Counted from the first letter of the stretch, positions 15,292 through 52,461 are shown. The stretch is DNA of 64,000 bases from an uncultured Planctomycetia bacterium (GCA_964420965.1 CAYQUQ010000001.1:31544-95543); one strand, 5' to 3'. Numbers and translations: made by a program. Notes: generated by a model not told the origin, from the sequence alone.

Positions 15292-16911
15292 CTACTCATT
15301 TTTCTTAACAAAAACTGCAATAGTACCTGCTACGAAAATTACAAGACCGGCAACAATCCATAGATTTGATACAAGTACTCCATAGTAAGTTACTACGATC
15401 CCAACTATCATAAAGACTATTCCTACGATCCCCTTTGCTATATGCCAAATTTTCTTATTCGAATTTAAATAAAGCTTCTTTCTTTTTATCAAACACCTAA
15501 TTGCAAACCCGACAGTAATCAGTGAAGAAATCAGTAAAAATAATAGTACACCCCCCCATTTTTTTATGAGAAAGAGTTCCCTTAAATCAGAATCGATAAA
15601 TGAAACTGCCATATGATTTCCTATACTGAGATAAAATCTTTTTAATTGCCAATAAAGCCCTTTCGCTTCGCGGTATCTTCCAGTGTCACCATAAAGGTCT
15701 GCTAAATCTTCGTACCGCCAAACGTCATCTGCATTGGCAACGTTAGGCTCTATTTGAATGGATTTCTCGTAATAAGATATTGATTTGTCAGGATCTCGCC
15801 AGCGGTAAATTGCACCAATTCTTGCGTATGGTACATGGTGTTCCGGGTTTATCTCGATTGCTTTTTGGTATAGTTCAACTGACTTTTGATAATCCCTTAT
15901 ACCTCCATACGCCTTAGCAAGCAGCATATAGAGATCAAAAGAATCAGGTTTTAACTCTAAGGCTTTCTCGAAATAAGTAATCGCTTCACGGTATTGATCT
16001 TCCGAGGGCACATAATCTCCCTGAAGCGCTTTCTCCCCCTGCATCCGATAATAATCTGCTTTTGTCGATTCATCAATACCCCCAAAAGCTAATTTACGAT
16101 ATTTTTCTAAAACTGGCTTGATATGATTGATTGCTAAGGCAAAATTAATGTTTTGACCTTCTCTATATTGCCAGGTGACTAAGCCGATAACCTCTCCTTT
16201 GGAATTGATGAGAGGGCCGCCGCTATTCCCTGGAGATACGGGAGCGGTCAATTGAAGCCAACGTAAATCCTGATCATGCCGAACACCCGATAATACTCCA
16301 TCACTAAAGGAATATTCCAATCCTAATGATGCTCCTATGCAATAAACAGCTTCTCCGGTTTCTACTGTATCAGAATTACCCAGATTAACGACGGGGAGAC
16401 GATCGGCAGTAATTTTTAGAATCGTCATGTCATATTTAGGGTCTGTATATACTACGCTTTCTATAGGAAATGTTGATTCGTCCTTCAGCACAACCACGAG
16501 TCTCTCCCGATCAAATTGATGGCCAACTACATGATGATTAGTAATAATCAAACCTTTACTATCTACAATAAATCCACTTCCGATATTTTCTCTTCTTTCA
16601 CTCCCATACTCTTTTTTAGAGAAATATACAACAGCCGGGCTTACATCTGCAAAGATGTCTCGAGATGATTTTATTGAAGATGTTCTAGATGAAAATTTAT
16701 TTTGTTCCTCGTTGACTGCCTCACCAATAATCTTCTCGATATCTTCCCGATAATAGGTCATCGGCACACCGTAAACATCTATTTTTATATAATCCTCAGC
16801 TCTTTCGATTATTTCTGCCTCTATGGTTCTGCCGGATTTGAGAATAATTATTTCGGCAAATAGAGGCGATGTTAACACTAGAGATAGCAAGGCAATAATT
16901 AATTTTTTCAT
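15292..16911 (-). CDS. Secreted trypsin-like serine protease (S1C/DegP-type core) plus TPR repeats plus C-terminal transmembrane segment; paralogue P1 of the N-module family
   Basis: Signal peptide then ETIILKSG-type N-module; protease motifs TNHHVV, DMTILK, GNSGGPLIN; TPR block; 2 C-terminal TM helices; RBS AAGGAG. Confidence 0.85.
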   Translation of the reverse strand: MKKLIIALLSLVLTSPLFAEIIILKSGRTIEAEIIERAEDYIKIDVYGVPMTYYREDIEKIIGEAVNEEQNKFSSRTSSIKSSRDIFADVSPAVVYFSKKEYGSERRENIGSGFIVDSKGLIITNHHVVGHQFDRERLVVVLKDESTFPIESVVYTDPKYDMTILKITADRLPVVNLGNSDTVETGEAVYCIGASLGLEYSFSDGVLSGVRHDQDLRWLQLTAPVSPGNSGGPLINSKGEVIGLVTWQYREGQNINFALAINHIKPVLEKYRKLAFGGIDESTKADYYRMQGEKALQGDYVPSEDQYREAITYFEKALELKPDSFDLYMLLAKAYGGIRDYQKSVELYQKAIEINPEHHVPYARIGAIYRWRDPDKSISYYEKSIQIEPNVANADDVWRYEDLADLYGDTGRYREAKGLYWQLKRFYLSIGNHMAVSFIDSDLRELFLIKKWGGVLLFLLISSLITVGFAIRCLIKRKKLYLNSNKKIWHIAKGIVGIVFMIVGIVVTYYGVLVSNLWIVAGLVIFVAGTIAVFVKKNE

Positions 16912-18740: not shown

Positions 18741-18830
18741 GCGGTTACAAAAAAGCGGTGATTTTGGCCTCAAAGAGAAGATTTTTAGGTATATAAAATG
18801 GTATATTAGAACGGTTACCTGAATTAAGAT
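18741..18830 (+). promoter_or_regulatory. Promoter-region segment A, copy 1 (extended -10 TGGTATATT at 18799-18807)
   Basis: gcggttacaaaaaagcggtgatttt...aaaatggtatattagaacggttacct is duplicated at 19078-19172. Confidence 0.6.
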
Positions 18831-18904
18831 TACCTTGTTTTCTTAAGAGCTTTTCGGGAGAGGCGATAAAAATATTCCTGTTTTTCCAGAATCAGTGATA
18901 GTAA

Positions 18905-19070
18905 ATACTTAGTCTTCATCACAGCCGACACGGAAGAGCGCCGCCGGGGAGGGTGTCGGCAGACCATTCCCTACAGGTAACCAAAACACCGGCGGCATTG
19001 ACTTTATCCCCGGTAGCCTCAGTTTACAGGTTACCGGGGATCTTCAAAATCGAACCCCGGAACGAACTCT
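18905..19070 (+). pseudogene. Decayed fragment homologous to the 3' end of the giant ORF (25990-26160), lying between two copies of a duplicated promoter segment
   Basis: cagccgacacggaagagcgccgccggggagggtgtcggcagaccattccctacaggtaaccaaaacaccggcggcattgactttatcc versus cagccgacacggaggggcaacaacgccgccggggagggtgtcggcagaccattcctcaaaggtaaccaaacacccggcggcattgattttaacc. Confidence 0.7.
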
Positions 19071-19077
19071 GCTTGTA

Positions 19078-19172
19078 AGCGCTTACAAAAAACCCTTGAT
19101 TTTAAAGGGAAATACGAGATTTTCCCTTATCCAAAATGTTATACTCAAGAGGTTACCTCTTTTTTTGAGCGC
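19078..19172 (+). promoter_or_regulatory. Promoter-region segment A, copy 2 (extended -10 TGTTATACT at 19137-19145), about 50 bp upstream of the giant ORF
   Basis: gcgcttacaaaaaacccttgatttt...aaaatgttatactcaagaggttacct. Confidence 0.6.
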
Positions 19173-19219
19173 TTTTTGGTTACCTATAGTTTGTAAAACT
19201 TAATTTCGGGAGACGAAGA

Positions 19220-22200
19220 ATGCTGTCATTTTTTCAGAGGCAGAAGGCCACTGTCTCTCTCCGCTTATTAGGTGCATTACTCATTTTCTTTCTGTTTATC
19301 TCTCTAGCCGCTACCTACTTACCTAAGAGATCACCGAAGTATGCTGATTTTCTTCCTCCCCCCGGCAAACTAGTAGCTTTAACCCCCGCCTTTATCCCGC
19401 CGCTTTTACGCGGCCTGACCATCTATCCCCAGGATCCTTTTCGCTTCGACTTCTATATCGAAAACGGCGACAAACACCTTAAAGATGAACAGTTTAAACA
19501 AGAATCCCGGCAGCTGATCAAGTACTTTTTAGCGGCCTTAACCATACCCGAGGAAGACTTCTGGGTCAACCTCTCCCCTTACGAACAAGAAAGAATCGCT
19601 CCTGAGGACTTAGGCGTAACCGAGCTGGGAAAAGCCCTCTTAGGCCAGGACTATATCTTAAAACAACTCCTGGCTTCCCTGATGCACCCGGACAGTGAGA
19701 CCGGAAAAGAGTTCTGGAAGCGGGTCTATAGACGCGCCCATGAGCTCTACGGCACGACCAAAATACCCATTAACACCTTCAACAAGATTTGGATTATGCC
19801 GGAGAAGGCCTTAGTTTACGCCCGGGACAATACCGCTTATGTGGTGGAAAGCCGCCTCAAAGTTTTACTGGAAGAAGACTACCTGGCCTTAAAGCAAAAT
19901 CTTAACCACCCGGCTCCCGGTTCGGAAAAGCTCTCGCCGGATAAGACCAAGGTTTTATGCCGGATATCTTCTAATCTGATCAAGGAAGTCATCCTGCCGG
20001 AAATCGAAACAGAAATCAACCAGGGAGAAAACTTCGCCTCTTTGAGGCAGGCCTTTAACGCCATGGTCTTAGCCGCCTGGTTTAAACGCCGCCTTAAAAC
20101 TCACCTCCTCAATCAGGTCTATACCGATAAAGCCAAACTCAAAGGTGTCGATCTTAAAGATAAAGCCACCAAACAAAAAATCTACCAGCAATACTTAGAG
20201 GCCTACCGGCAAGGCGTATACAACTACATCAAGACTGAATATGACCCCAATATGCAGAAAAACATTTCCCGCCAGTACTACAGCGGCGGCTTTGCCTGGG
20301 GAAAGCCCGGGGAATGGTTGGGTGAGACCGGCCAGGCCCCCTTATCCCGCCGGGAAGGAGCCAATGTCCAGGTGGCTTTGCGGGCGGAAATGGGGCAGAC
20401 AAGGAGAGTTTCCTCGCCCAGTGAGAGTAGTGGAGATGAGCTTAAGGTTCTCTATAACGCGGCTTTAGCCGGTGATAGTTCCGCGGTAAACCAGTTAAAG
20501 GCATTTGCTCTCTCTTCCGACCACGCCCTAGCCCAAAGCGCCTACGAATACCTGGATCACCTGGCCTACAAAGAAAGCAACTTAGAGAGCATCCAGGCCG
20601 TAAAGGAGCTGGCCCTTTCTGCGGATATACCCCGGGAAGCCAAACTTAATTCCAATAGCCAGGGTATCATCGATGACTTAGCTTATATCGTCCGGGAAGC
20701 CCAGCACCATATCAGCAGCGAAGCCCGCAAGGCGGCTTTAGACGCTTTAGAGGAAATCATGTTTGCTTATGCTAAGAGCGATACCAAGATAGCCGATTAT
20801 ATCTTAAACCGCATATTCACCCCCTTAAGGAATGGCTACATAAACACTATCCCCGACGGAGCCGAGCTGGCCACCCAGGCCTTAAAAAGAATGGTGGAGT
20901 CTGACCAGATCGGTTCAGGCTTAACTGCCCAGGCTTTAACGGCTAAACCGGAACAACCCTTAGCCGTATTTAATACCGTAACTGACCCGGCGGCCCAAGG
21001 ATATACCCCTGGGCATAAAAAGACAGCCTTGGAAAACTTAAACCTGGCCCAGGCCGCCCAGGTAATCCCCCGGATAAAGGAGCTGGTCTTCTCCCAGGAC
21101 CACGCCCTAGCCCAAAGCGCCTACGAATACCTGGATCACCTGGCCTACAAAGAAAGCAACTTAGACAGCATCCAGGCCGTGAAGGAGCTGGCCCTGTCTG
21201 CGGATATACCCCGGAAGGCTAAACTTGACTCCAATAACCAGGGCATTATCGATGACTTAGCTTATATCGTCCGGGAAATACAACTGAACGTCAGCAGAGA
21301 AGCCCGCAAGGCGGCCCTGGCGGCTTTAGAAGAGATCCTGTTTGCCTACGCTAACGATACCAACATAGCCGATTACATCTTGAACCGCGTATTCATCGCC
21401 CTAAGGGAACAGGTGATAAGCGCTATCCCCGACGGAGCCGAGCTGGCCACCCAGGCTTTAAAAAGAATGGTGGAGTCTGACCAGATCGGCCCAGGTTTAA
21501 CGGCCCGGGCCTTAACGGCTAAACCGGAACAACCCTTAGCCGTATTTAATACCGTAACTGACCCGGCGGCCCAAGGATATACCCCTGGGCATAAAAAGAC
21601 AGCCTTGGAAAACTTAAACCTGGCCCAGGCCGCCCAGGTAATCCCCCGGATAAAGGAGCTGGTCTTCTCCCAGGACCACGCCCTAGCCCAAAGCGCCTAC
21701 GAATACCTGGATCACCTGGCCTACAAAGAAAGCAACTTAGACAGCATCCAGGCCGTGAAGGAGCTGGCCCTGTCTGCGGATATACCCCGGAAGGCTAAAC
21801 TTGACTCCAATAACCAGGGCATCATCGATGACTTAGCTTATATCGTCCGGGAAACCCAGCACCATATCAGCAGCGAAGCCCGCAAAGCGGCCCTGGCGGC
21901 TTTAGGAGAGATTGCTGCCGCTGATTTTGCCGACGATGCTATCATCAGATACTTACAGAATGATAACGGCGTTAAAGCAATAATCCGCAGTACCTCACTA
22001 CCAGCTATCCCCCAAGATTTATGGGAGTTGCTACAAACAGCTAATCAGGATGCTCCTTCCAACAAGCAGATAAATTTAGAATCATTTATGGCTGACTACT
22101 GGCTTACCGTGGCCCGGCTTTACCACCTGGATCCACGCTATTGCCGCCAGATATTTGACGCTATCCTTTCCGGCCTGGGGCCAAAGCGGCTAGCGGCATT

Positions 22201-25200
22201 CTTAAAGGATATACAACCGGCCCTTTGGGATGAAACCATTTACCCAGCATTAAAGTCAATATTTAAACAGGCCCAAGAGCGGGATCATGCTTATGCCCAG
22301 AGAATTATCGAGTTAGCTGCCGCCTATAAGGATTTAGGGATCAGCCAGTTATTTGTGCAGCTGGCCGCGCAGGAAGCCCAAAAACGCCGGGTTACGGTCC
22401 GGCAGGTATATTTAGCTCTAGCCCAGGAGTTAATCAAAGCCTTTGCCCAGAAACTGGGAGTTACCCTGGACCGGGTGACTGCCGAGACCATTGAAAATTG
22501 GTATTTGCCTTATTTATCCAAGCTGTTTGTGGGCCGGCGCATTGTCTATGCTCACGGCAGCAGCCACCGGCCCCTGCAGCAGCTATTCGATTCAGTGATC
22601 AAGGCCACCCTGGAAGGTAAATTCGCTGAGATGATCACTGATACCAGTGATGCCAACGCTTATCCCATGGGTAAAAGAATTGCTGAGCAGAATCAGAAGG
22701 TGAGAAAAGCCTTAGAGTTATTAGGCATTGACTTAGAAGAGTGGTTAGGCTATCAAGAGGAAGCCCGGTTTAGCTTAGAGCAGGCCCAGGGCAGCCGGAT
22801 TGATGTGGCCGCAGAATTACAGGGCTTGGCCGAGCAGTTTTTCGCTCTTCTCGATAAGCTGCAGGAAAAGCACGGGAATATGGTCAGGGGTAGTTTAGGT
22901 AAGATGGGCTTAGAATTAGTGGAAGATGCTCAAGGCAGGCGTCTGGTTCAGAATAATGGTCGGCAGGAAACCAATCAGAAAGTGGCCCTTAAAGCCTTGA
23001 TGGGTTTATTATTTAAAAACCAGGGTAACTTCAGCAAACTCCAGAAAAGCTTGAATTTCCTGGATAGAAATTATCAGGGCCAGGAAGCGGCTACCTTAAT
23101 CTTCCACATCCGGGAAAAACTAGAGATGCTTAACCGCCTGGTCAATAATCCCGCAGAATTTAAAAAAGCCCTGGAAGGCCCGCAGGCATTTTTAATCCGC
23201 AGGTGGGCCCGAAATCCCGGCCGGGATATCTTCCAGGGTAACTTTACCGGATGCTGTGTGGCTATCGATAACGACTTACACCCGGAGGCCATTATCGAAT
23301 ACCTCATTGACCAGGGGATTCAGATTGTGGAGGTTGTTGATGAGGCTACCGGCTTAGCCGTAGCCCAGACATGGGTTTTTGTAGCCGTTAATCAAAACGG
23401 CAAGCCGGTTTTAGTTTTAGACAATATTGAAGTCGAGGAAACTTACCCTAAAACTTCCGGTCAGAATAAAATAATCCGTGATCACCTGGTAGCCTACATG
23501 CAGAAATATGCGCAGGCTATCGACGTCGAGGAGCTTTATTTAGGGGTAACCCAGTACAACGATGTGAACACCAGTGATTACCCCACTGTTTCTGATCAGT
23601 TGGTCAAGCCCGGGGGTTACCTCTGGGATTTTGAAGGCGCAAACTATACCTACTATTTAGAGTCCATGTACGGCGAAACCGTTCAGCAGAGTTCGCACCG
23701 CGCCGACGGAAGTATCCCTTCTACGGCCCGGCAGTTCCACCGCCTTCCTTTGCCTAAGCTTCCGCCTAAACCGGTGGATAATAGCCGGATCGGCGTCGAC
23801 CGCGTTCTACCCGATCAGGCCGAGGGGATTTTAGATCAACTGGTCCAGGTAGAGGCCGGGGCTTATTCTAATCCGGAATTAAGGCTGGGAAGAGAATTTT
23901 TACGCCACTCCGTAAATAATCCCCAGGGGGTCAATATGGTATTGCGCTACAAGGGAAGAATAATCGGCTACGCCCTCTCTGTTCCGGCTGAGGACGAGGA
24001 GGCTGCTCCCCAGATTCCCCACAGCCTTTACCTTGAGGATTTTGCTATTCTGCCCGAGTTCCGCAATAATCCGGCGGCCAATCTTAAGTTTATCCGGGGA
24101 TTTCTCCGGGAGGTAACCAACGGTACCTATCAGACCGTAACCCTGCATACTCATGGTGGGATTGTCAAATTTCTGGTGGATGATTTTGGCTTTGCCATAG
24201 TCGGTAAAGAAGATAATTGGCTTGATTCGGGAGAGACCTTTTATTTATTGCGCTGGGATAAGGCTTCTTCTTCGGTCTCCTCACCATCGTCTTCTCCCCG
24301 CAGAGAGGAGCTAGAGAGGTTACGCGATGCCCTGATGAATGCCGCGGAGAGATTAAAATCGAATCTCGTCCTACACCATAAGGAAGTAGAAGATTTTCAT
24401 AGCACAGTCAGTATATATAATGGACAAGAAATGACCACCGGAGAAATGCTGGATGAACTCAGAAGAGGTATGTATAGGATTAAAACCCGCGAAGAATTAA
24501 TGGATGAGTTGCACCTCTGGATGGATTGGCATATTGAGCATGCATTACATGTAGATAGTGTTGTTTCCCACGCTGCTTCCCGCAGCTCCAAACAAGTGGT
24601 AAGAGAATTGCTGATCAGAGAGTTCGATCTTAAGACTTTAATGTTGATCGATATAGAATATTTAGAGGGGGAAGGAAAAGGCTTTGCCCGGGGCGGATAC
24701 GGAATAGGTAAACACGAGAAATTAGACGAACCGAGACAAAAACAAGTAGCCCAGTGGTATAATCGCCATTTATATGAAGGATTCGAAGTCTTACAGACGG
24801 TTTTAGAAGAGCGGGAACTTCCCTGGGAAGTTGATTTTCAGGAGTATGAACAGTCATTTAAATTTTGGTTTCCTGACAATATTTCTCGGCCTATTGCCCG
24901 CGAGCGGCAGAGAGGGCAGACTTACGAAGATAGCGTGAATGCCAGTCTTGCGGAGGTTAATGCAGCCATTAAGGAGGTTAATGAGGAGTTACGCCAGTAT
25001 GCTGATCCCGATGAAAGTTCATCGTCCCCCAACGCCTCGTCCTCATCCCAGCCGGACGGTACAGGAAAAGATATTACCAGAAGAAGATTTTTGAAGCGTC
25101 TGACCGCGACTGCAACTGTAGCGACGGTAGCGCCTAATGATATCATTCTACCGGGATCCACGTTACCGTCTCCGGCATCTCCAGTCAGAATAAGTTATGC

Positions 25201-26281
25201 TCTTCTGCGCGATATGCTATCAGGAATAGGTGCTGTTCAAATGCCTACTACAGGGAGTCGGGGTAATTTAATTGTATTTGATGATTTTCCTTTTTGGTGG
25301 CATCTGCGGAGAGTATTGCCAGAGGGGCAGAAAGATGAAGCAGAAAAAATTGCAGAAAAATTACTGAGAGCGGCTGTGTTAGAGGCCAGACAGAGGCTGA
25401 GGACAGCAGGGATTATAGAGACAGGAGAGGCCGCAGAACAAGTTATTGGAGATATCGAGAGGGCATTCGATGATTCAGCCCATGAGGTTCGTAGAACGAT
25501 AGAGAAAGGAGGTTATTCAGAAGACCTGGTATACGATGCTATTAAAAAAGCACAAAAAGCAATAGCGCAACAGCAGGATAAAAAAGAGGATGGCCTTGAG
25601 CAACCAGAACCGGAGATCATGTACACCGACTCCGGCTTTCCGGACTTTGATATTACCCAGATGCAGGATATAGAGCTTATTGGACGAATTGAGGTAATCG
25701 AAGCTGACCTGTTCAGGCAGCTGCAGCTAAGGAGTGCTTCTGACCGGGATATCCGCACACTCGCCGGCCGTATCTATCTGGCCCAGCGGGCAGCAGAGGG
25801 AAGGGCTATGGCTGAAGTAACTGATCTTAGTCCGATTGGTAATATCACCCAAGATGATCTAGAGTCAATCGGCGGCCGCGTGTTAGGTCTGATGGGGATG
25901 AGCGGGGTAGGCGAAAGTCCGCCTGAAGGTCAACCCAAGCAGGCAGGACTTACCGTCTTATCAACGACAGATTCGTCTTCTCCCAACGCTTCGTCCTCAT
26001 CCCAGCCGACACGGAGGGGCAACAACGCCGCCGGGGAGGGTGTCGGCAGACCATTCCTCAAAGGTAACCAAACACCCGGCGGCATTGATTTTAACCCTGA
26101 TAACCTGGATTTACAGGTTATCGGGGATAATAGCAGGGAGCGGTCTCGACCGTTCCCTGCTGAATCTCAGCTTCCTTTCGATACCCATAATTTCCAAGGC
26201 TTTACCTTCCAGATTCTCAAAATCGAGCCGGTTACAGACCCAGTCCATATTACCAAAGGACCCCAGCTTTCTCGCCGCTAA
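19220..26281 (+). CDS. Giant modular membrane-anchored protein (2,353 aa) with internal 192-aa tandem repeats and Ser/Pro-rich linkers; function unknown
   Basis: Uninterrupted 7,062-bp ORF; N-terminal TM helix LLGALLIFFLFISLAA; repeat array 20515-21915; possible GNAT-like segment at about 23900-24260; internal Tat-like motif TRRRFLKRL; duplicated linker SSSPNASSSSQP. Confidence 0.8.
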   Translation: MLSFFQRQKATVSLRLLGALLIFFLFISLAATYLPKRSPKYADFLPPPGKLVALTPAFIPPLLRGLTIYPQDPFRFDFYIENGDKHLKDEQFKQESRQLIKYFLAALTIPEEDFWVNLSPYEQERIAPEDLGVTELGKALLGQDYILKQLLASLMHPDSETGKEFWKRVYRRAHELYGTTKIPINTFNKIWIMPEKALVYARDNTAYVVESRLKVLLEEDYLALKQNLNHPAPGSEKLSPDKTKVLCRISSNLIKEVILPEIETEINQGENFASLRQAFNAMVLAAWFKRRLKTHLLNQVYTDKAKLKGVDLKDKATKQKIYQQYLEAYRQGVYNYIKTEYDPNMQKNISRQYYSGGFAWGKPGEWLGETGQAPLSRREGANVQVALRAEMGQTRRVSSPSESSGDELKVLYNAALAGDSSAVNQLKAFALSSDHALAQSAYEYLDHLAYKESNLESIQAVKELALSADIPREAKLNSNSQGIIDDLAYIVREAQHHISSEARKAALDALEEIMFAYAKSDTKIADYILNRIFTPLRNGYINTIPDGAELATQALKRMVESDQIGSGLTAQALTAKPEQPLAVFNTVTDPAAQGYTPGHKKTALENLNLAQAAQVIPRIKELVFSQDHALAQSAYEYLDHLAYKESNLDSIQAVKELALSADIPRKAKLDSNNQGIIDDLAYIVREIQLNVSREARKAALAALEEILFAYANDTNIADYILNRVFIALREQVISAIPDGAELATQALKRMVESDQIGPGLTARALTAKPEQPLAVFNTVTDPAAQGYTPGHKKTALENLNLAQAAQVIPRIKELVFSQDHALAQSAYEYLDHLAYKESNLDSIQAVKELALSADIPRKAKLDSNNQGIIDDLAYIVRETQHHISSEARKAALAALGEIAAADFADDAIIRYLQNDNGVKAIIRSTSLPAIPQDLWELLQTANQDAPSNKQINLESFMADYWLTVARLYHLDPRYCRQIFDAILSGLGPKRLAAFLKDIQPALWDETIYPALKSIFKQAQERDHAYAQRIIELAAAYKDLGISQLFVQLAAQEAQKRRVTVRQVYLALAQELIKAFAQKLGVTLDRVTAETIENWYLPYLSKLFVGRRIVYAHGSSHRPLQQLFDSVIKATLEGKFAEMITDTSDANAYPMGKRIAEQNQKVRKALELLGIDLEEWLGYQEEARFSLEQAQGSRIDVAAELQGLAEQFFALLDKLQEKHGNMVRGSLGKMGLELVEDAQGRRLVQNNGRQETNQKVALKALMGLLFKNQGNFSKLQKSLNFLDRNYQGQEAATLIFHIREKLEMLNRLVNNPAEFKKALEGPQAFLIRRWARNPGRDIFQGNFTGCCVAIDNDLHPEAIIEYLIDQGIQIVEVVDEATGLAVAQTWVFVAVNQNGKPVLVLDNIEVEETYPKTSGQNKIIRDHLVAYMQKYAQAIDVEELYLGVTQYNDVNTSDYPTVSDQLVKPGGYLWDFEGANYTYYLESMYGETVQQSSHRADGSIPSTARQFHRLPLPKLPPKPVDNSRIGVDRVLPDQAEGILDQLVQVEAGAYSNPELRLGREFLRHSVNNPQGVNMVLRYKGRIIGYALSVPAEDEEAAPQIPHSLYLEDFAILPEFRNNPAANLKFIRGFLREVTNGTYQTVTLHTHGGIVKFLVDDFGFAIVGKEDNWLDSGETFYLLRWDKASSSVSSPSSSPRREELERLRDALMNAAERLKSNLVLHHKEVEDFHSTVSIYNGQEMTTGEMLDELRRGMYRIKTREELMDELHLWMDWHIEHALHVDSVVSHAASRSSKQVVRELLIREFDLKTLMLIDIEYLEGEGKGFARGGYGIGKHEKLDEPRQKQVAQWYNRHLYEGFEVLQTVLEERELPWEVDFQEYEQSFKFWFPDNISRPIARERQRGQTYEDSVNASLAEVNAAIKEVNEELRQYADPDESSSSPNASSSSQPDGTGKDITRRRFLKRLTATATVATVAPNDIILPGSTLPSPASPVRISYALLRDMLSGIGAVQMPTTGSRGNLIVFDDFPFWWHLRRVLPEGQKDEAEKIAEKLLRAAVLEARQRLRTAGIIETGEAAEQVIGDIERAFDDSAHEVRRTIEKGGYSEDLVYDAIKKAQKAIAQQQDKKEDGLEQPEPEIMYTDSGFPDFDITQMQDIELIGRIEVIEADLFRQLQLRSASDRDIRTLAGRIYLAQRAAEGRAMAEVTDLSPIGNITQDDLESIGGRVLGLMGMSGVGESPPEGQPKQAGLTVLSTTDSSSPNASSSSQPTRRGNNAAGEGVGRPFLKGNQTPGGIDFNPDNLDLQVIGDNSRERSRPFPAESQLPFDTHNFQGFTFQILKIEPVTDPVHITKGPQLSRR
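20515..21915 (+). repeat. About 2.4 tandem copies of a 576-579-bp coding repeat inside the giant ORF (copy 1 20515-21093, copy 2 21094-21669, partial copy 3 21670-about 21915)
   Basis: Identical string ccacgccctagcccaaagcgcctacgaatacctggatcacctggcctacaaagaaagcaacttag at 20521, 21100 and 21676; the copy ends share more than 150 bp of exact identity. Confidence 0.9.
26132..26161. repeat. Near-palindromic 30-mer related to the korA palindrome, inside the giant ORF 3' region
   Basis: agcagggagcggtctcgaccgttccctgct (2 mismatches from a perfect palindrome). Confidence 0.8.
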
Positions 26282-46774: not shown

Positions 46775-47596
46775 TCAATTCTGTTGTTCCTTTCCATTTG
46801 TTATTCGTTTTATTTCCTGATAAATTTCAGAACGATATTGGTCACCACCTATTTTGGAAAGAATATAATCTATTCTCAGTCGAGGAAATTGCCATTCGGG
46901 AGCAAGGCGAATTGCTTCTAAATGTGCGTCGATCGCCTCCTTATAATTACCAAGATATTCATAAGCCCAGCCCATGCTACAGTATGCTCTTGCAAAATCA
47001 GGAAAAAGAGAAATAGTTATTTTGCAGGCATCTATCGAGTCTTGAAAACGGCCCATAAGTCTGTAAGTAACGGCTTTATTTTGATAAGCGTCATACAGCA
47101 TGGGATTATGTATGATTGCCTTGTTGAATTCAACAAGAGCCTTATCATATTCTTTTAACGTCATATAGCAGGAGCCAATGCCGTAACGAGCCATACCAGC
47201 TTCTTTCCTGGCTATTCCTAAGGCACCCTGAAATTCTTTCAGGGCTTCCTTGGGTTTGCCTGATTTTTGCAAAGAGACACCCCTCTCATTGTATAAAGCG
47301 AATTCGGCTATATTAACGAGTTGGCCATAGTATTTTTCTGGCGACGAAATGGCGAGGGGCTCACGAGAATAACTGTTTTTTTCTACAGGGAGGCTGATTT
47401 TTTCATTCCCGATACATTCAATCTCATCAAAATAACAAGTGAACGGTATTCCCTGAAAATTAATTCTTATGTAATTTTCGGTACGTTCAATTATTTTTGC
47501 ATCGATTATCTCTCCCGATTTCAATTTAATGGTTTCAGCAAAGACAAAACTTAAAAAGGTTAAACTTATCAGAACTAATCCGATTACCTTCTTCAT
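46775..47596 (-). CDS. Secreted TPR-repeat protein; paralogue P2 of the N-module family
   Basis: Signal peptide plus ETIKLKSGEIIDAKIIERTENYIRINFQGIPFTCYFDEIECI; TPR block; start at the ATG rc at 47594-47596 with RBS GGGGAG. Confidence 0.8.
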   Translation of the reverse strand: MKKVIGLVLISLTFLSFVFAETIKLKSGEIIDAKIIERTENYIRINFQGIPFTCYFDEIECIGNEKISLPVEKNSYSREPLAISSPEKYYGQLVNIAEFALYNERGVSLQKSGKPKEALKEFQGALGIARKEAGMARYGIGSCYMTLKEYDKALVEFNKAIIHNPMLYDAYQNKAVTYRLMGRFQDSIDACKITISLFPDFARAYCSMGWAYEYLGNYKEAIDAHLEAIRLAPEWQFPRLRIDYILSKIGGDQYRSEIYQEIKRITNGKEQQN

Positions 47597-47705
47597 TTCA
47601 CTCCCCTTTTTTATTTTCATCCAACACAAAAATCACCTGCCTGACGAGCCCGCGACTCTAGGGAGCGGCGAGGAAGGTCAGGTGGATTGACTTGTATCAG
47701 TTATT
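47597..47705 (-). promoter_or_regulatory. 5' leader of P2 sharing boxes CACCTGACCTTCC and GATTTTTGTGTTGGATGA with the 15100-15240 leader
   Basis: rc reads caatcCACCTGACCTTCCtcgccgctccctagagtcgcgggctcgtcaggcaGGTGATTTTTGTGTTGGATGAaaataAAAAAAGGGGAGtgaaATG. Confidence 0.5.
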
Positions 47706-50006: not shown

Positions 50007-51161
50007 TTAATTTACCCTCTTCGTTTTTAAGAGGGTAATCTCTATCTGGGCGCTTTTGCCTATCGGGGTAGAGGCTATTTTTTCCCTGGCCGTAACCTCG
50101 ATACTGGCCCCGCGAAACAGAGTCCCGAAATCTTTAGAATTGGTCTGCCCGTAATACTCCCGGATGTGGTGTTCATACCGGAAACAATAATAATTTTTTC
50201 CTTTAGAGATGCCGAAAGTGGGGTCGACCGGGACCCAGCCGTATCGCGGTAGATAAATTTCCACCCAGGCATGGCCGACATCGGTTACGCATTTATTCCG
50301 GGAGACGTTAGGCATAAACACGATACCGTCTACTTCCCGCGCCGGAATGCCGCTGGTCCGGGCCAGGGCAATGAACAGCCTGGACAGATCAGCGCAATTT
50401 CCCTTTTTTATCCGGAGGGTTTGATCCGGGTTTTGAAATCCCGAAATTTCCGGCCGGTGTTCATAGGTAAAATTGCGGGTTATAAAGTTATACAGGGCTC
50501 TGCCTTTGCGATAAGGATTTTTTATATTTTTAGTTATGGATCGCGCCGTATTCTTAAGCAGCTTATTATTGATTTTTGCGTCTTTATAGCTTTTTAAATA
50601 AGCGCGGACTTTGGAATTCAGCTTGCCGTAACGGTCGGGAATAGCTTCCGGTTTCAGGCGTAAATCCGTCTGTTGTACCTGGATGGAATAGGAAATATTT
50701 ATATTAATATTTTTCCCGGTTCGGGGCCGGGGAAAGTCGAAAACAGCCACCTTATTATTATTCGGATCGTCGATAAGGGCATCGTGTTTAGGAAGAGTGC
50801 GAATAGTGGATATGGCCTGGTAGGATAAATTCCTGAGTCCTACCGGATAGCGGAAGCGCAAAGTATGCAAGTCCATAAGAGGTCTAATCGTAAAAGTTTT
50901 TTTCACCTTATAGGAAATGAGGTTTTTTATTACCGGCCTTTTGCGTTTTGAGGGGTAGTCTTTGATTTTGGCGATATCATCCCGGGGGTATTTTAAGGTA
51001 AGGTCGTCAATTTCAATTACGATATACCGGTCAGTTTTTTTTACGATTTCACCCCTTATTTTCCGGCCGGACTTAAAAGTAATCGTGTCGGCAAAAAGCA
51101 ATTGGCCAAAACAGCAGATTACTAGGGGGAGAAGTAATATTGTTTTATCGAGTTTCATCAA
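50007..51161 (-). CDS. Secreted transglutaminase-like cysteine-protease-fold protein; paralogue P3 of the N-module family
   Basis: Signal peptide plus DTITFKSGRKIRGEIVKKTDRYIVIEIDDLTLKYPRDDIAKI; core GNCADLSRLFIALARTSGIPAREV...GHAWVEIYLPRYGWVPVDPT. Confidence 0.8.
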   Translation of the reverse strand: MMKLDKTILLLPLVICCFGQLLFADTITFKSGRKIRGEIVKKTDRYIVIEIDDLTLKYPRDDIAKIKDYPSKRKRPVIKNLISYKVKKTFTIRPLMDLHTLRFRYPVGLRNLSYQAISTIRTLPKHDALIDDPNNNKVAVFDFPRPRTGKNININISYSIQVQQTDLRLKPEAIPDRYGKLNSKVRAYLKSYKDAKINNKLLKNTARSITKNIKNPYRKGRALYNFITRNFTYEHRPEISGFQNPDQTLRIKKGNCADLSRLFIALARTSGIPAREVDGIVFMPNVSRNKCVTDVGHAWVEIYLPRYGWVPVDPTFGISKGKNYYCFRYEHHIREYYGQTNSKDFGTLFRGASIEVTAREKIASTPIGKSAQIEITLLKTKRVN

Positions 51162-51710
51162 TCAAAAAAATACTGTTTTGAGCGTTAGTACAATGTAGCC
51201 GGCGGGAAAGCAAAAGGCAGCTATTCCTAATGGGTATAAAGCCGGCATGCGCTTATTGGTTTTTACATCCCGGGCTACCAGAAAGACAACGCCTAGGAAT
51301 ACGGCCCCGATGGAGCCGATTAAACCGGCCAGGCCGATAAATATATTTTGGCCGACACCTCTGGCAATAACCAGCGAGAGGATGGTCCCGATAATAAAGT
51401 TAAGGGCACAAAATATAAATCCACTCAGGATAATCTTTTCTCTCCCCACCCGGTAGGTTAATTCTTCCGGGGTGAGTTTAAGCTTCGGGTATCGGGGGTT
51501 ATATTTCCGGGCCATAATTTTTTCAATCGTCAATAAGCAGAAGATACTGTAGGCCCCGATCAGGATATCGAAGATAAAAGGCTTGGTTCCGGAAGCAGCC
51601 AGAGTGCCGCGGGCGGCATTAAAAAAATGGTAATCAGAAGCATAGCAGGCCAGCCGCAGGGTCCAGACCATAGACTCCGACCAGAAATAATCCCATTTAT
51701 TGACGGTCAT
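51162..51710 (-). CDS. Hypothetical polytopic membrane protein, co-operonic with P4 and P3
   Basis: 182 aa, about 5 TM helices; overlaps P4 by 14 nt and abuts P3. Confidence 0.55.
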   Translation of the reverse strand: MTVNKWDYFWSESMVWTLRLACYASDYHFFNAARGTLAASGTKPFIFDILIGAYSIFCLLTIEKIMARKYNPRYPKLKLTPEELTYRVGREKIILSGFIFCALNFIIGTILSLVIARGVGQNIFIGLAGLIGSIGAVFLGVVFLVARDVKTNKRMPALYPLGIAAFCFPAGYIVLTLKTVFF

Positions 51711-52461
51711 ATTGTTCTTCCATTTGCTGCCGGATGTTCTCCATCACCTGCTTGGCATAGGAAATGGCCAGATCTACTTGGCCCAGGAATTCCGGGGGCG
51801 CGCCCTGTTCGATATATACCCGCCGGAGTTCTTCCATTTCCTCGATAGTGATAGTTTGCATTTTTTGCATCGCTTCCTTAGGCCGGCCGGCCGGATTATT
51901 TCTAATTTCTTTATGCAGGGTTAAAGAGAGCCCTAAAAGCTGGAGCCGCTTTTGGTGGTAGCGGGATAACTCTACCGGCGGGGATATGCTTTCGGTCTGT
52001 TTTATGAGTGTTTCGATTCCCTGAATAGCTTCAGCGAATATGCGCAGTTTTGTTTCCTGGTCCTGGCCCTGCATTTGCTTTCGGGCTATGGCGCCGATTT
52101 GTCCGGCTTTGTGGCCGATAATCCCCATTTGATTTAAGTAGCCCGAGACCCCGGCATGCCAATTCTGCCATTTTTTTAATTCAGCGCTGTCTTTTTCTAA
52201 CAGTTTTATATAATCCGAGGTATTTTTATCCGGACCGGCATATTCCGGGCCTAAAAAAGCGGAAGCGCTCTGGCCGTTAATGCTGTCAATATCTTCGGTA
52301 TAATAAGTTATGGGGATACCGCCGATATCCACCTTTATTTTTCCCTTGGCCTTCTCGATTATTTTACCTTCTACGGTTTTACCCGATTTCAAAATAATGG
52401 TTTCGGCAAAAAGGGAGAAGGAAATTGAGGCCCAGACGAGAAATAAAATTAACTTTTTCAT
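51697..52461 (-). CDS. Secreted alpha-helical protein; paralogue P4 of the N-module family
   Basis: Signal peptide plus ETIILKSGKTVEGKIIEKAKGKIKVDIGGIPITYYTEDIDSI; RBS GAGGAAAGG. Confidence 0.75.
   Translation of the reverse strand: MKKLILFLVWASISFSLFAETIILKSGKTVEGKIIEKAKGKIKVDIGGIPITYYTEDIDSINGQSASAFLGPEYAGPDKNTSDYIKLLEKDSAELKKWQNWHAGVSGYLNQMGIIGHKAGQIGAIARKQMQGQDQETKLRIFAEAIQGIETLIKQTESISPPVELSRYHQKRLQLLGLSLTLHKEIRNNPAGRPKEAMQKMQTITIEEMEELRRVYIEQGAPPEFLGQVDLAISYAKQVMENIRQQMEEQYDRQ

Follow-up and report, generated by a model that had tools for sequence, protein, structure and literature searches.

A 2,353-residue modular protein of an uncultivated Omnitrophota bacterium belongs to a large family with conserved ends and exchangeable cargo

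Introduction

Candidatus Omnitrophota are widespread, uncultured, ultra-small bacteria, which are thought to depend or prey on other cells. Their large genes carry few annotated domains, have no assigned function and have repeatedly been flagged as likely interaction machinery (PMC10066038). Here we describe one large gene, an open reading frame (ORF) of 2,353 codons located in a 64,000-nucleotide stretch of DNA (hereafter the window) that was deposited under the name of an uncultured Planctomycetia bacterium (GCA_964420965.1 CAYQUQ010000001.1:31544-95543). The gene belongs to a very large, Omnitrophota-restricted and apparently undescribed family outside the curated databases, whose members combine a predicted Sec-type N-terminal signal, an N-domain of ~350 aa, a variable cargo with Ser/Pro linkers, a C-domain of ~55 aa predicted to be beta-rich, and a short tail. 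Proteins of this kind are already known, both as modular proteins that are exported and have conserved ends for sorting or anchoring and as the long multi-enzyme proteins of Omnitrophota; what is new is the pair of uncurated domains.

The closest described proteins are the giant proteins of Omnitrophota, which come from the same phylum and are built in the same style, a single polypeptide combining many Pfam modules of unrelated type with internal repeats. Excerpts of the literature on them indicate a repertoire shared with the family, including GNAT, methyltransferase, HATPase, PGM, receiver, HEAT, starch synthase and dockerin domains, and passages of a 2026 preprint state that most are predicted to have a signal peptide and/or transmembrane (TM) segments (10.64898/2026.06.07.730766). 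The two giant-protein studies, in the parts considered here, deal with proteins of at least 10,000 aa that have tens of TM helices and SecA-DEAD/C39 domains or dockerin/TSP3 arrays (10.1101/2023.11.21.568195; 10.64898/2026.06.07.730766); giants of the 'Archaeovorin' and dockerin types are described in sections of the former as exceeding 10-30 thousand aa, with many TM helices and SecA-DEAD, C39 or dockerin domains (West-Roberts 2023, 10.1101/2023.11.21.568195). In contrast, the protein studied here has 2,353 aa, a single hydrophobic segment and no SecA-DEAD, C39 or dockerin Pfam domain. The conserved N/C frame is described in neither paper within the passages searched (10.1101/2023.11.21.568195; 10.64898/2026.06.07.730766).

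Cargo proteins of the type IX secretion system (T9SS) of Bacteroidota resemble the family in having a cleavable Sec signal, diverse cargo and a small conserved beta-rich C-terminal domain, and also in the frequent Gln at position +1 after the signal-peptidase site (PMC5837995). However, our protein does not match the T9SS C-terminal domain (Por_Secre_tail), nor any other Pfam or NCBIfam model within its C-terminal 100 aa at E<=1; the family C-domain of ~55 aa is followed by a variable tail, and the family has an obligatory N-domain of ~350 aa that T9SS cargo lacks. Moreover, the phylum falls in the Planctomycetes-Verrucomicrobia-Chlamydiae group and not in the Fibrobacteres-Chlorobi-Bacteroidetes group, and no T9SS genes were seen nearby. 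Two-partner secretion exoproteins and polymorphic toxins (TpsA/CdiA, Rhs), for their part, resemble the family in that a signal peptide precedes a conserved domain of ~300 aa at the N-terminus, in that the distal parts of the long chain are exchanged between paralogues or strains, and in that orphan 3' remnants stand beside full genes. Unlike in these proteins, the variable part of the family is internal and the extreme C-terminus is conserved. The TPS (haemagglutination-activity) domain PF05860 gave no match in our protein, and AlphaFold2 (AF2) models of the N-domain show a mixed alpha/beta fold with long helices, not a beta-helix. Nor is there an immunity-like gene downstream, the next gene being a syntenic AMP-binding enzyme, and the cargo of the family consists mostly of housekeeping-type enzymes rather than toxins. 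With profile and model tests all negative, the protein was rejected as T9SS cargo and as a TpsA/CdiA/Rhs-type protein.

Results

The ORF occupies positions 19220..26281 on the + strand, where, as the original prediction had stated, a single uninterrupted frame of 7,062 bp is found: it is initiated by ATG, encodes 2,353 aa plus a stop codon, and contains no internal stops. A stop-free run of 2,353 codons at 46% GC is not a chance ORF, and the N-terminal 350 aa are kept across thousands of proteins. The gene is thus real, and it comes from an uncultivated member of Candidatus Omnitrophota. All features of the gene given below lie on the + strand.

A search with the whole protein produced 1,611 matches among 8,000 candidates scored, of which the best 120 were listed. 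The 118 non-self matches listed, with lengths of 1,320-4,085 aa, cover ~15% of our protein, corresponding to its first ~370 aa, at ~50% identity. All organism names among them are Candidatus Omnitrophota or Omnitrophica, one more match being from an unclassified hydrothermal-vent metagenome. Subsequently, an exhaustive phmmer search with the N-domain against 1.84 billion cluster representatives detected 7,966 clusters, 6,173 of them at E<=1e-30, in proteins ranging from ~600 to more than 5,000 aa; the best 150 of the 7,966 matches have the N-domain in single copy, starting near residue 40. In our protein the N-domain spans aa ~40-395 (19337..20404), and a hidden Markov model (HMM) of the family matches aa 55-368 with E 1.3e-153.

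The opposite end of the protein is conserved as well. An HMM built from the C-termini of the homologues identified a C-domain of ~55 aa in 114 of the 120 matches listed and, after a second search, in 175 of 213 proteins, most members without it appearing truncated. Its consensus reads GGIDLNPxxLDLQ...IxGFxPVIINIxPxxNLPxLLG, and a GFTF variant also occurs. Our protein carries this variant (GGIDFNPDNLDLQV...FQGFTFQILKIEP, aa 2283-2340, 26066..26239), which matches the HMM with E 1.2e-18 at residues 2296-2350 of the stop-to-stop ORF, equivalent to aa ~2286-2340 of the protein; the C-terminal block that had been pointed out earlier, GGIDF...FQGFTFQILKIEP, lies within it at aa 2287-2337. The tail that follows is 7-73 aa long in the family and ends in [LIVM]-S-x(2-3) in about one third of the members; in our protein it is short (26240..26278) and ends in PQLSRR. 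The variants of the two ends go together, as the N-terminal signal variant of our protein and the GFTF C-domain variant co-occur in 7 of 7 cases (Fisher p 2.7e-9), in proteins of 1,348-5,094 aa.

A pattern-limited scan of species-representative genomes returned 19 loci, 15 of them in metagenome-assembled genomes (MAGs) titled Omnitrophota or Omnitrophica and four titled uncultured Planctomycetia or Planctomycetales, with up to four loci per MAG. Family genes elsewhere are often adjacent in tandem; the window holds one full member and one remnant. One tandem pair, on a 3.36-Mb contig (L024:10001-23012), consists of P0023 (2,770 aa) and P0017 (1,553 aa), arranged head-to-tail 38 bp apart and each with faint HEAT_2 matches; an alpha-2-macroglobulin-like gene follows the pair. 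The window also shares partial synteny with Ca. Aceula meridiana, of the phylum Omnitrophota. When the C-domain profile alone was searched, only ORFs of 54-105 aa were obtained, mostly contig-end fragments or frameshift products. Among the genomes inspected, that of Candidatus Aceula meridiana (JAVCDE010000033.1, L021:10001-10240) contains a 79-aa ORF made only of a C-domain and a typical LSMLAN tail. This ORF follows Era, where the gene order agrees in part with that of the window, and the 10 kb around it include no N-domain; either a relic or a mini-protein with a function of its own may be represented here.

From these data we assign the gene to the family, with the architecture described, with high confidence. 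When the whole protein was compared with the curated collections Pfam, NCBIfam, PADLOC and PHROGs, all matches were sub-threshold or irrelevant, apart from the twin-arginine translocation (Tat) motif described below. The earlier remark that no characterised family is recognised, save for a possible GNAT fold, thus holds for these four collections and for PDB sequences. A likeness to giant surface or effector genes of uncultivated lineages had also been suggested; homologues and synteny do place the gene in Omnitrophota, an uncultivated lineage known for large genes of the surface or effector type, but as a member of a family and not as an isolated oddity. A literature search found no description of a family with this N/C frame, which is not proof of its absence.

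The clearest view of how such genes change is provided by the metagenome contig L026, which is syntenic with the window over 13 flanking genes at 60-88% aa identity. Genes for DUF3857/transglutaminase, TPR, Era, nitroreductase and tRNA U5-methyltransferase precede the family gene in the same order in both, and those for an AMP-binding enzyme, PNP_UDP, an 86-aa ORF, ApbA, a 207-aa ORF and two ketoacyl synthases follow it. The family gene of L026, encoding P0003 (1,479 aa), is 62% identical to ours in the N-domain and 49% in the C-domain, whereas tblastn with our 1,870-aa cargo found no match in L026. The frame is therefore conserved and the cargo exchanged even at an orthologous locus. Moreover, a search with the cargo only (aa 396-2265) returned nothing except our own protein.

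The same trend was observed across 171 full-length members, among which the mean distance is 0.39 for the N-domain and 0.58 for the C-domain. Distances of the two domains correlate (r 0.41), a value reached by none of 500 Mantel permutations. Cargo similarity was detected in just 259 of 14,535 member pairs (1.8%), and only 5 of the 29 pairs with N-domains more than 80% identical share more than half of their cargo, figures in which dissimilarity is inflated by the many sequences that are representatives of 50%-identity clusters. The Pfam families found in the cargo of the homologues are extremely diverse and include PGM/PMM, PGI, PGK and GAPDH together with acyl-CoA dehydrogenase, isocitrate lyase, malate synthase and PPDK; also UDP-glucose pyrophosphorylase, UbiB with M48, receiver domains, HATPase, HEAT, methyltransferases and GNAT; and further DEAD helicases, AAA, HD, PP2C, DnaJ/FHA and dockerin.

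The cargo of our protein consists of 2.5 tandem repeats of 192 aa, a shared module of ~500 aa, a GNAT-like domain and two further modules. It begins after a Ser-rich linker, VSSPSESS (aa 397-404, 20408..20431), with the putative helical repeats: copy 1 (aa 411-603, 20450..21028), copy 2 (aa 604-795, 21029..21604), which is 82% identical to copy 1 in aa, and copy 3 (aa 796-~1031, 21605..22312). The spacing of the repeats is 579/576 nt and their DNA identity 84-97%. Three near-identical copies had been proposed; two full copies are indeed present, but the third is near-identical only in its first ~100 aa, diverges over the rest and is 55% identical overall. The program TRF reported no tandem repeats, as a period of 576 nt exceeds its limit; a direct-repeat search did detect the copies. 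In Pfam the repeats gave weak, sub-threshold matches only (DUF7934, E 0.0028; MOR2-PAG1_C, E 0.045), and HEAT_2 (PF13646) is present in many relatives.

The next module, at aa 987-1507 (22178..23740) and containing the motif FTGCCVAID, recurs in the cargo of four other members (P0007, P0026, P0073 and P0141) at 21-35% identity by BLASTP and has no match in Pfam or the PDB. It is followed by the GNAT-like module (aa 1541-1662, 23840..24205), ~5% of the protein, whose first part (aa 1541-1617) scored 16.0 bits against PF00583, below the cutoff of 20.7 (E 0.015). The module can be aligned with the bona fide GNAT domain of P0003 (Smith-Waterman z 4.8, the score being reached by 1 of 300 shuffles), yet the acetyl-CoA loop, R/Q-x-x-G-x-G/A, reads RNNPAA in our protein and RQQGIG in P0003. 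As this pyrophosphate-binding loop is degenerate, acetyltransferase activity is doubtful, and of the possible GNAT segment noted earlier there remains a similarity below the cutoff, supported by the alignment with P0003.

Toward the C-terminus the modular, Ser/Pro-linked layout that the original prediction had read is confirmed by linkers at aa 1683-1693 (SSSVSSPSSSP, 24266..24298), aa 1934-1945 (SSSPNASSSSQP, copy 1, 25019..25054) and aa 2252-2263 (SSSPNASSSSQP, copy 2, 25973..26008, directly ahead of the C-domain), the last two being nearly identical in DNA (direct repeat D5). They delimit two cargo modules for which no homologue was found, at aa 1694-1933 (24299..25018) and aa 1987-2251 (25178..25972), with a GC content at third codon positions (GC3) of ~0.45 and ~0.43, respectively.

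Between the first SSSPNASSSSQP linker and the last cargo module lies a Tat-type signal (aa 1952-1986, 25073..25177), in which the motif S/T-R-R-x-F-L-K, here TRRRFLKRL, precedes a hydrophobic stretch. TIGR01409 matched it at 19.5 bits, above the curated cutoff of 16.7, so that the internal Tat-like motif suspected earlier is real. It is located ~1,950 residues into the ORF, and from such an internal position it cannot target the intact protein in the way that a signal at the N-terminus would. Similar internal signals (RRxFLK plus a hydrophobic region) were detected in 10 other members (P0022, P0036, P0075, P0090, P0140, P0156, P0166, P0193, P0196 and P0205), hundreds to thousands of residues inside the proteins and in several cases preceded by Met; P0036 and P0090 have two each, and one signal among the 10 members is accompanied by a lipobox-like AGGC. 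Internal Tat signals with a Met fit the capture of whole genes, signal peptide included, and the signal of our protein is probably a vestige of the signal peptide of a captured gene.

The N-terminus contains the only strongly hydrophobic segment of the protein (Kyte-Doolittle 19-aa windows above 1.6 only at aa 9-36), in keeping with the one TM helix predicted from the sequence, and this peak would be the h-region (hydrophobic region) of a Sec-type signal (aa 14-34, 19259..19321). The homologues have on average 3.4 Lys/Arg before the segment and 0.47 after it, with an excess on the N-terminal side in 99 of 106. An x-A-Q motif shortly before the LPxPG start of the N-domain is present in 122 of 169 members (~72%), and of the 126 cases in which the x-x-A-Q context was read, 108 carry A, S, V, G or T at -3; this fits the -3/-1 rule of signal peptidase I, with Gln at +1. 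The presence of Gln directly after the predicted site (x-A|Q) in ~72% of the members (P0007-P0213) recalls the 'Q-rule' of Bacteroidetes, in which Gln occupies +1 after the signal-peptidase site (PMC5837995). This pattern was not seen in other secreted proteins of the window.

The subfamily of our protein has a longer h-region, Lys/Arg after it, and a K-Y-A|D site. Since a Lys at -3 is unfavourable for cleavage, the signal of our protein is probably kept as an uncleaved membrane anchor. In its positional orthologue P0003, 4 Lys/Arg precede the hydrophobic stretch and 1 follows it, and the site reads S-Y-A|D. The earlier description of the protein as membrane-anchored is thus right about the hydrophobic helix, but this helix is homologous to an apparently cleavable Sec signal in most members, and membrane anchoring may be limited to the subfamily. 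As the N-domain is homologous throughout, an extracytoplasmic location would extend to all members. Exported enzymes with several domains typically have Ser/Pro linkers, and the presence of such linkers here, together with the internal Tat signals and the dockerin cargo, also supports export. Judging from these signals, we consider Sec-dependent export of the frame fairly likely.

The N-domain starts with LPPPG and ends with an invariant YYSGG and one further strand (ANVQVALRAE). It has ~50 invariant positions, many of them polar (S119, E122, D144, K148, Q149, N188, K189, E218, D220, E265, N267, R276 and Q277), which suggests that the domain is more than a spacer and has a site for binding or catalysis. 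AF2 models were obtained for the N-domain of our protein, with a predicted local distance difference test (pLDDT) score of 65, and for P0187, a minimal member of 602 aa, with a pLDDT of 72.7 and ~90 in the core of the N-domain. Both N-domain models exhibit three long beta-hairpins interleaved with helices of 15-30 residues, and in the P0187 model the C-domain forms three beta-strands, a block with pLDDT up to ~92.

No Pfam or NCBIfam model covering the N- or the C-domain was found in scans of our protein and six relatives, and a PDB sequence search with three tiles of our protein gave no match for the N-domain or the cargo. Matches from a PDB profile search were discarded as coiled-coil noise in unaligned cargo columns, outside the N-domain. 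Foldseek comparison of the N-domain model with the PDB yielded no match at E<0.1. The best-ranked entries, pore-forming toxins of the ClyA family (MakE, MakA and NheA), were not significant, with a probability of at most 0.04, and were not counted as a fold match.

Discussion

We propose that the N- and C-domains of these proteins are inherited jointly and stay at their locus, and that the cargo between them would be duplicated, captured and replaced, captured genes sometimes bringing along their own start Met and Tat signal. If the charge bias and the cleavage-like motifs of the homologues are read correctly, the N-terminal signal would pass the polypeptide through Sec, leaving its bulk outside the cytoplasm, and in the subfamily of our protein it would probably persist as an uncleaved membrane anchor. 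The two domains could then form a constant frame for export, anchoring or presentation, by which exchangeable enzymatic or binding modules are held at the envelope or surface; alternatively, the frame could hand the modules to a dedicated pathway, and the N- and C-domains might cooperate by co-folding. We assign the frame such a role because its ends are conserved and diverge in a correlated way, and by analogy with known systems; as a presentation device it is a tentative proposal, somewhat short of probable. The combined reading, an exported N+C frame presenting exchangeable cargo at the envelope, is the one toward which we lean, by a small measure. One genome could in this way deploy many modules toward host or prey cells, which would fit the host-dependent lifestyle proposed for Omnitrophota. 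That the N/C pair is the signature of an undescribed, phylum-wide Omnitrophota system for export and display, or for effector delivery, is a more speculative idea, which we regard as rather doubtful.

Several points weigh against an exported frame. Much of the family cargo is normally cytoplasmic and needs ATP, NAD or CoA (PGK, GAPDH, acyl-CoA dehydrogenase, receiver domains, helicases, HATPase), and an extracytoplasmic site for cofactor-dependent enzymes is hard to rationalise, which we consider a serious objection. In passages of the 2026 preprint, long proteins that have TM segments only and share this Pfam repertoire are taken to face the cytoplasm (10.64898/2026.06.07.730766). Our protein itself has 3 Lys/Arg on each side of the helix, an h-region of ~21 aa, and a cleavage-like site, PKYA|D, with Lys at -3, and the call of export comes from simple rules on charge and cleavage-site motifs. 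Contact between the N- and C-domains is suggested by the high pLDDT of the C-domain strands in the P0187 model only. At the few loci examined, family genes were not accompanied by a conserved partner, for instance a gene for transport or processing, and the sampling of cluster representatives exaggerates how different the cargos are.

The family would matter in several ways even so. A simple, searchable rule (a Sec-type signal and two conserved domains bracketing exchangeable cargo) lies behind thousands of Omnitrophota proteins, and it supplies two new domain families for modelling and curation as well as a handle for cataloguing the presumably exported repertoire of a genome. The locus shared by L026 and the window shows how, in nature, cargo is rapidly replaced in place while synteny is kept. 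Export of metabolic enzymes becomes a concrete, testable hypothesis. Under the more speculative idea of a phylum-wide system, hundreds of different cytoplasm-type enzymes would be carried to the periplasm, the surface, or host or prey cells, including enzymes of glycolysis, the glyoxylate cycle and nucleotide-sugar metabolism, kinases, receiver domains and helicases. Whole-gene capture between constant ends would then be at work, and the same principle could stand behind the giant proteins of the phylum.

Doubts about the gene itself can be largely settled from its occurrence in other assemblies. That the ORF is an assembly artefact, a chimera formed at the 576-nt repeats, or a pseudogene in decay that was taken for a single frame might be suspected from one ENA assembly that stops within the repeats, where P0002 begins at aa 737, and from the differences between assemblies, all 7 of which fall in the repeat region. 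These 7 aa differences separate the window protein (P0001) from the near-identical 2,353-aa protein P0214 and cluster at aa 800-828 (21617-21703), the start of repeat copy 3, suggesting that the repeats underwent gene conversion, that strains differ, or that the repeats caused errors in the consensus. However, P0214 is encoded on 7 JGI contigs with the same flanks, and together with the identical P0001 of the NCBI record the protein is present on 8 contigs; one of those from JGI, L020, shares 99.88% identity with the window across 13 kb and has the same neighbours. Because the same ORF of identical length recurs on independent contigs, with both protein ends matching the family domains in register and 7 kb without a stop codon, an artefact is extremely improbable. 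Hardly better placed is the idea of a horizontally acquired, compositionally foreign island gene, which would agree with the GC-rich, distinct composition originally attributed to the ORF. Its GC content, 0.497, is indeed 3.5 points over the mean of 39 other ORFs of the window (0.462 +/- 0.031), but this is a deviation of only ~1.1 standard deviations, and its GC3, 0.541, is ~0.7 standard deviations above theirs (0.508 +/- 0.051). The composition is therefore not that of an outlier, and a windowed calculation found several other 1-kb bins, including housekeeping stretches, to be equally GC-rich. GC3 falls along the gene, being 0.60 in the N-domain and repeats, 0.55 in the modules of the middle part and 0.43-0.45 in the two final ones; this might also be taken as foreign origin, and is compatible with a mosaic origin of the cargo. 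Since the family gene of L026 sits exactly there too, flanked by the same genes, the locus is ancestral and only the cargo may be mosaic; the foreign-island reading is largely refuted, and we give it very little credence.

Two other readings concern where the protein resides and what becomes of it. The N-terminal helix might anchor the protein in the inner membrane with the N-domain, cargo and C-domain all in the cytoplasm, where they would organise metabolic or signalling enzymes. Cargo families that are mostly cytoplasmic cofactor-dependent enzymes and signalling domains speak for such an arrangement, as do the long helix of our protein with equal charge on both sides and the interpretation that parts of the 2026 preprint give to TM-only proteins of the same repertoire (10.64898/2026.06.07.730766). 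It is difficult to reconcile, however, with the strong N-side charge bias (99 of 106 homologues), with the A-x-A-like x-A-Q motif directly after the h-region in 72% of the members, with the 4-to-1 charge distribution and S-Y-A|D site of P0003, or with the Ser/Pro linkers, internal Tat signals and dockerin modules typical of exported proteins, and we regard it as unlikely. A polyprotein precursor, cut at the Ser/Pro linkers and with some pieces re-targeted by internal Tat signals, would leave the N- and C-domains a part only in processing or initial targeting. The near-identical SSSPNASSSSQP linker ahead of two different modules could be understood in this way, and so could the internal Tat-type signals, some after a Met, of our protein and 10 other members; sections of the work of West-Roberts et al. 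raise proteolytic cleavage as a possibility for giant Omnitrophota proteins (10.1101/2023.11.21.568195). Nevertheless, neither a protease domain nor a conserved cleavage motif was detected in our protein with Pfam and NCBIfam, a Tat signal outside the cytoplasm could not engage the Tat translocase, and relics of gene capture explain the internal signals equally well, which makes a precursor of this type distinctly improbable.

Other features of the window

The spacer upstream of the gene contains a frame-broken 3' remnant of a family paralogue (18908..19060, + strand), located between a methyltransferase gene and the start codon and recognised by a direct repeat (D4), a DNA alignment and the C-domain HMM. 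It keeps the end of a Ser linker and the first half of a C-domain (..QPTRKSAAGEGVGRPF..GGIDFIPGSLSLQVTGD), followed by an 86-bp deletion and then by ..FKIEP. Compared with the 3' end of the gene (25985-26235), its DNA identity is ~82-90%, with gaps of 86 bp and 6 bp, and the HMM matches positions 1-21 only (E 4e-4). L020, an independent contig, has the remnant as well. It is what is left of a paralogue since lost, or of a previous form of the 3' end, in agreement with the tandem arrangement of family genes in other genomes. At the equivalent place L026 has an inserted AAA_14/DUF4143 ATPase gene (L026:8658-9785, - strand), which marks the spacer as a variable spot.

Promoter and terminator scans around the gene gave results at chance level only, and no tRNA or Rfam families were found in the 64-kb window. 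The palindrome-like heptamer GGTWACC occurs in 5 copies within 372 bp upstream of the gene (18813-19184) and in 21 copies in the whole window, against 6.6 +/- 2.6 expected. Three copies read GGTTACCT in non-coding DNA, and one copy forms a hairpin stem followed by a T-run (19147-19171). This array could represent regulatory sites or a relic terminator.

Finally, the window encodes four paralogous secreted proteins (15292-16911, 46775-47629, 50007-51161 and 51697-52461, all on the - strand), which share a signal peptide ending in ..LFAE/D, followed by the conserved motif TIxLKSGxxIxGxIIExxxxYIxI. One of them has trypsin-like and TPR domains, and one lies in a low-GC patch at 47-49 kb (GC 0.37-0.40).

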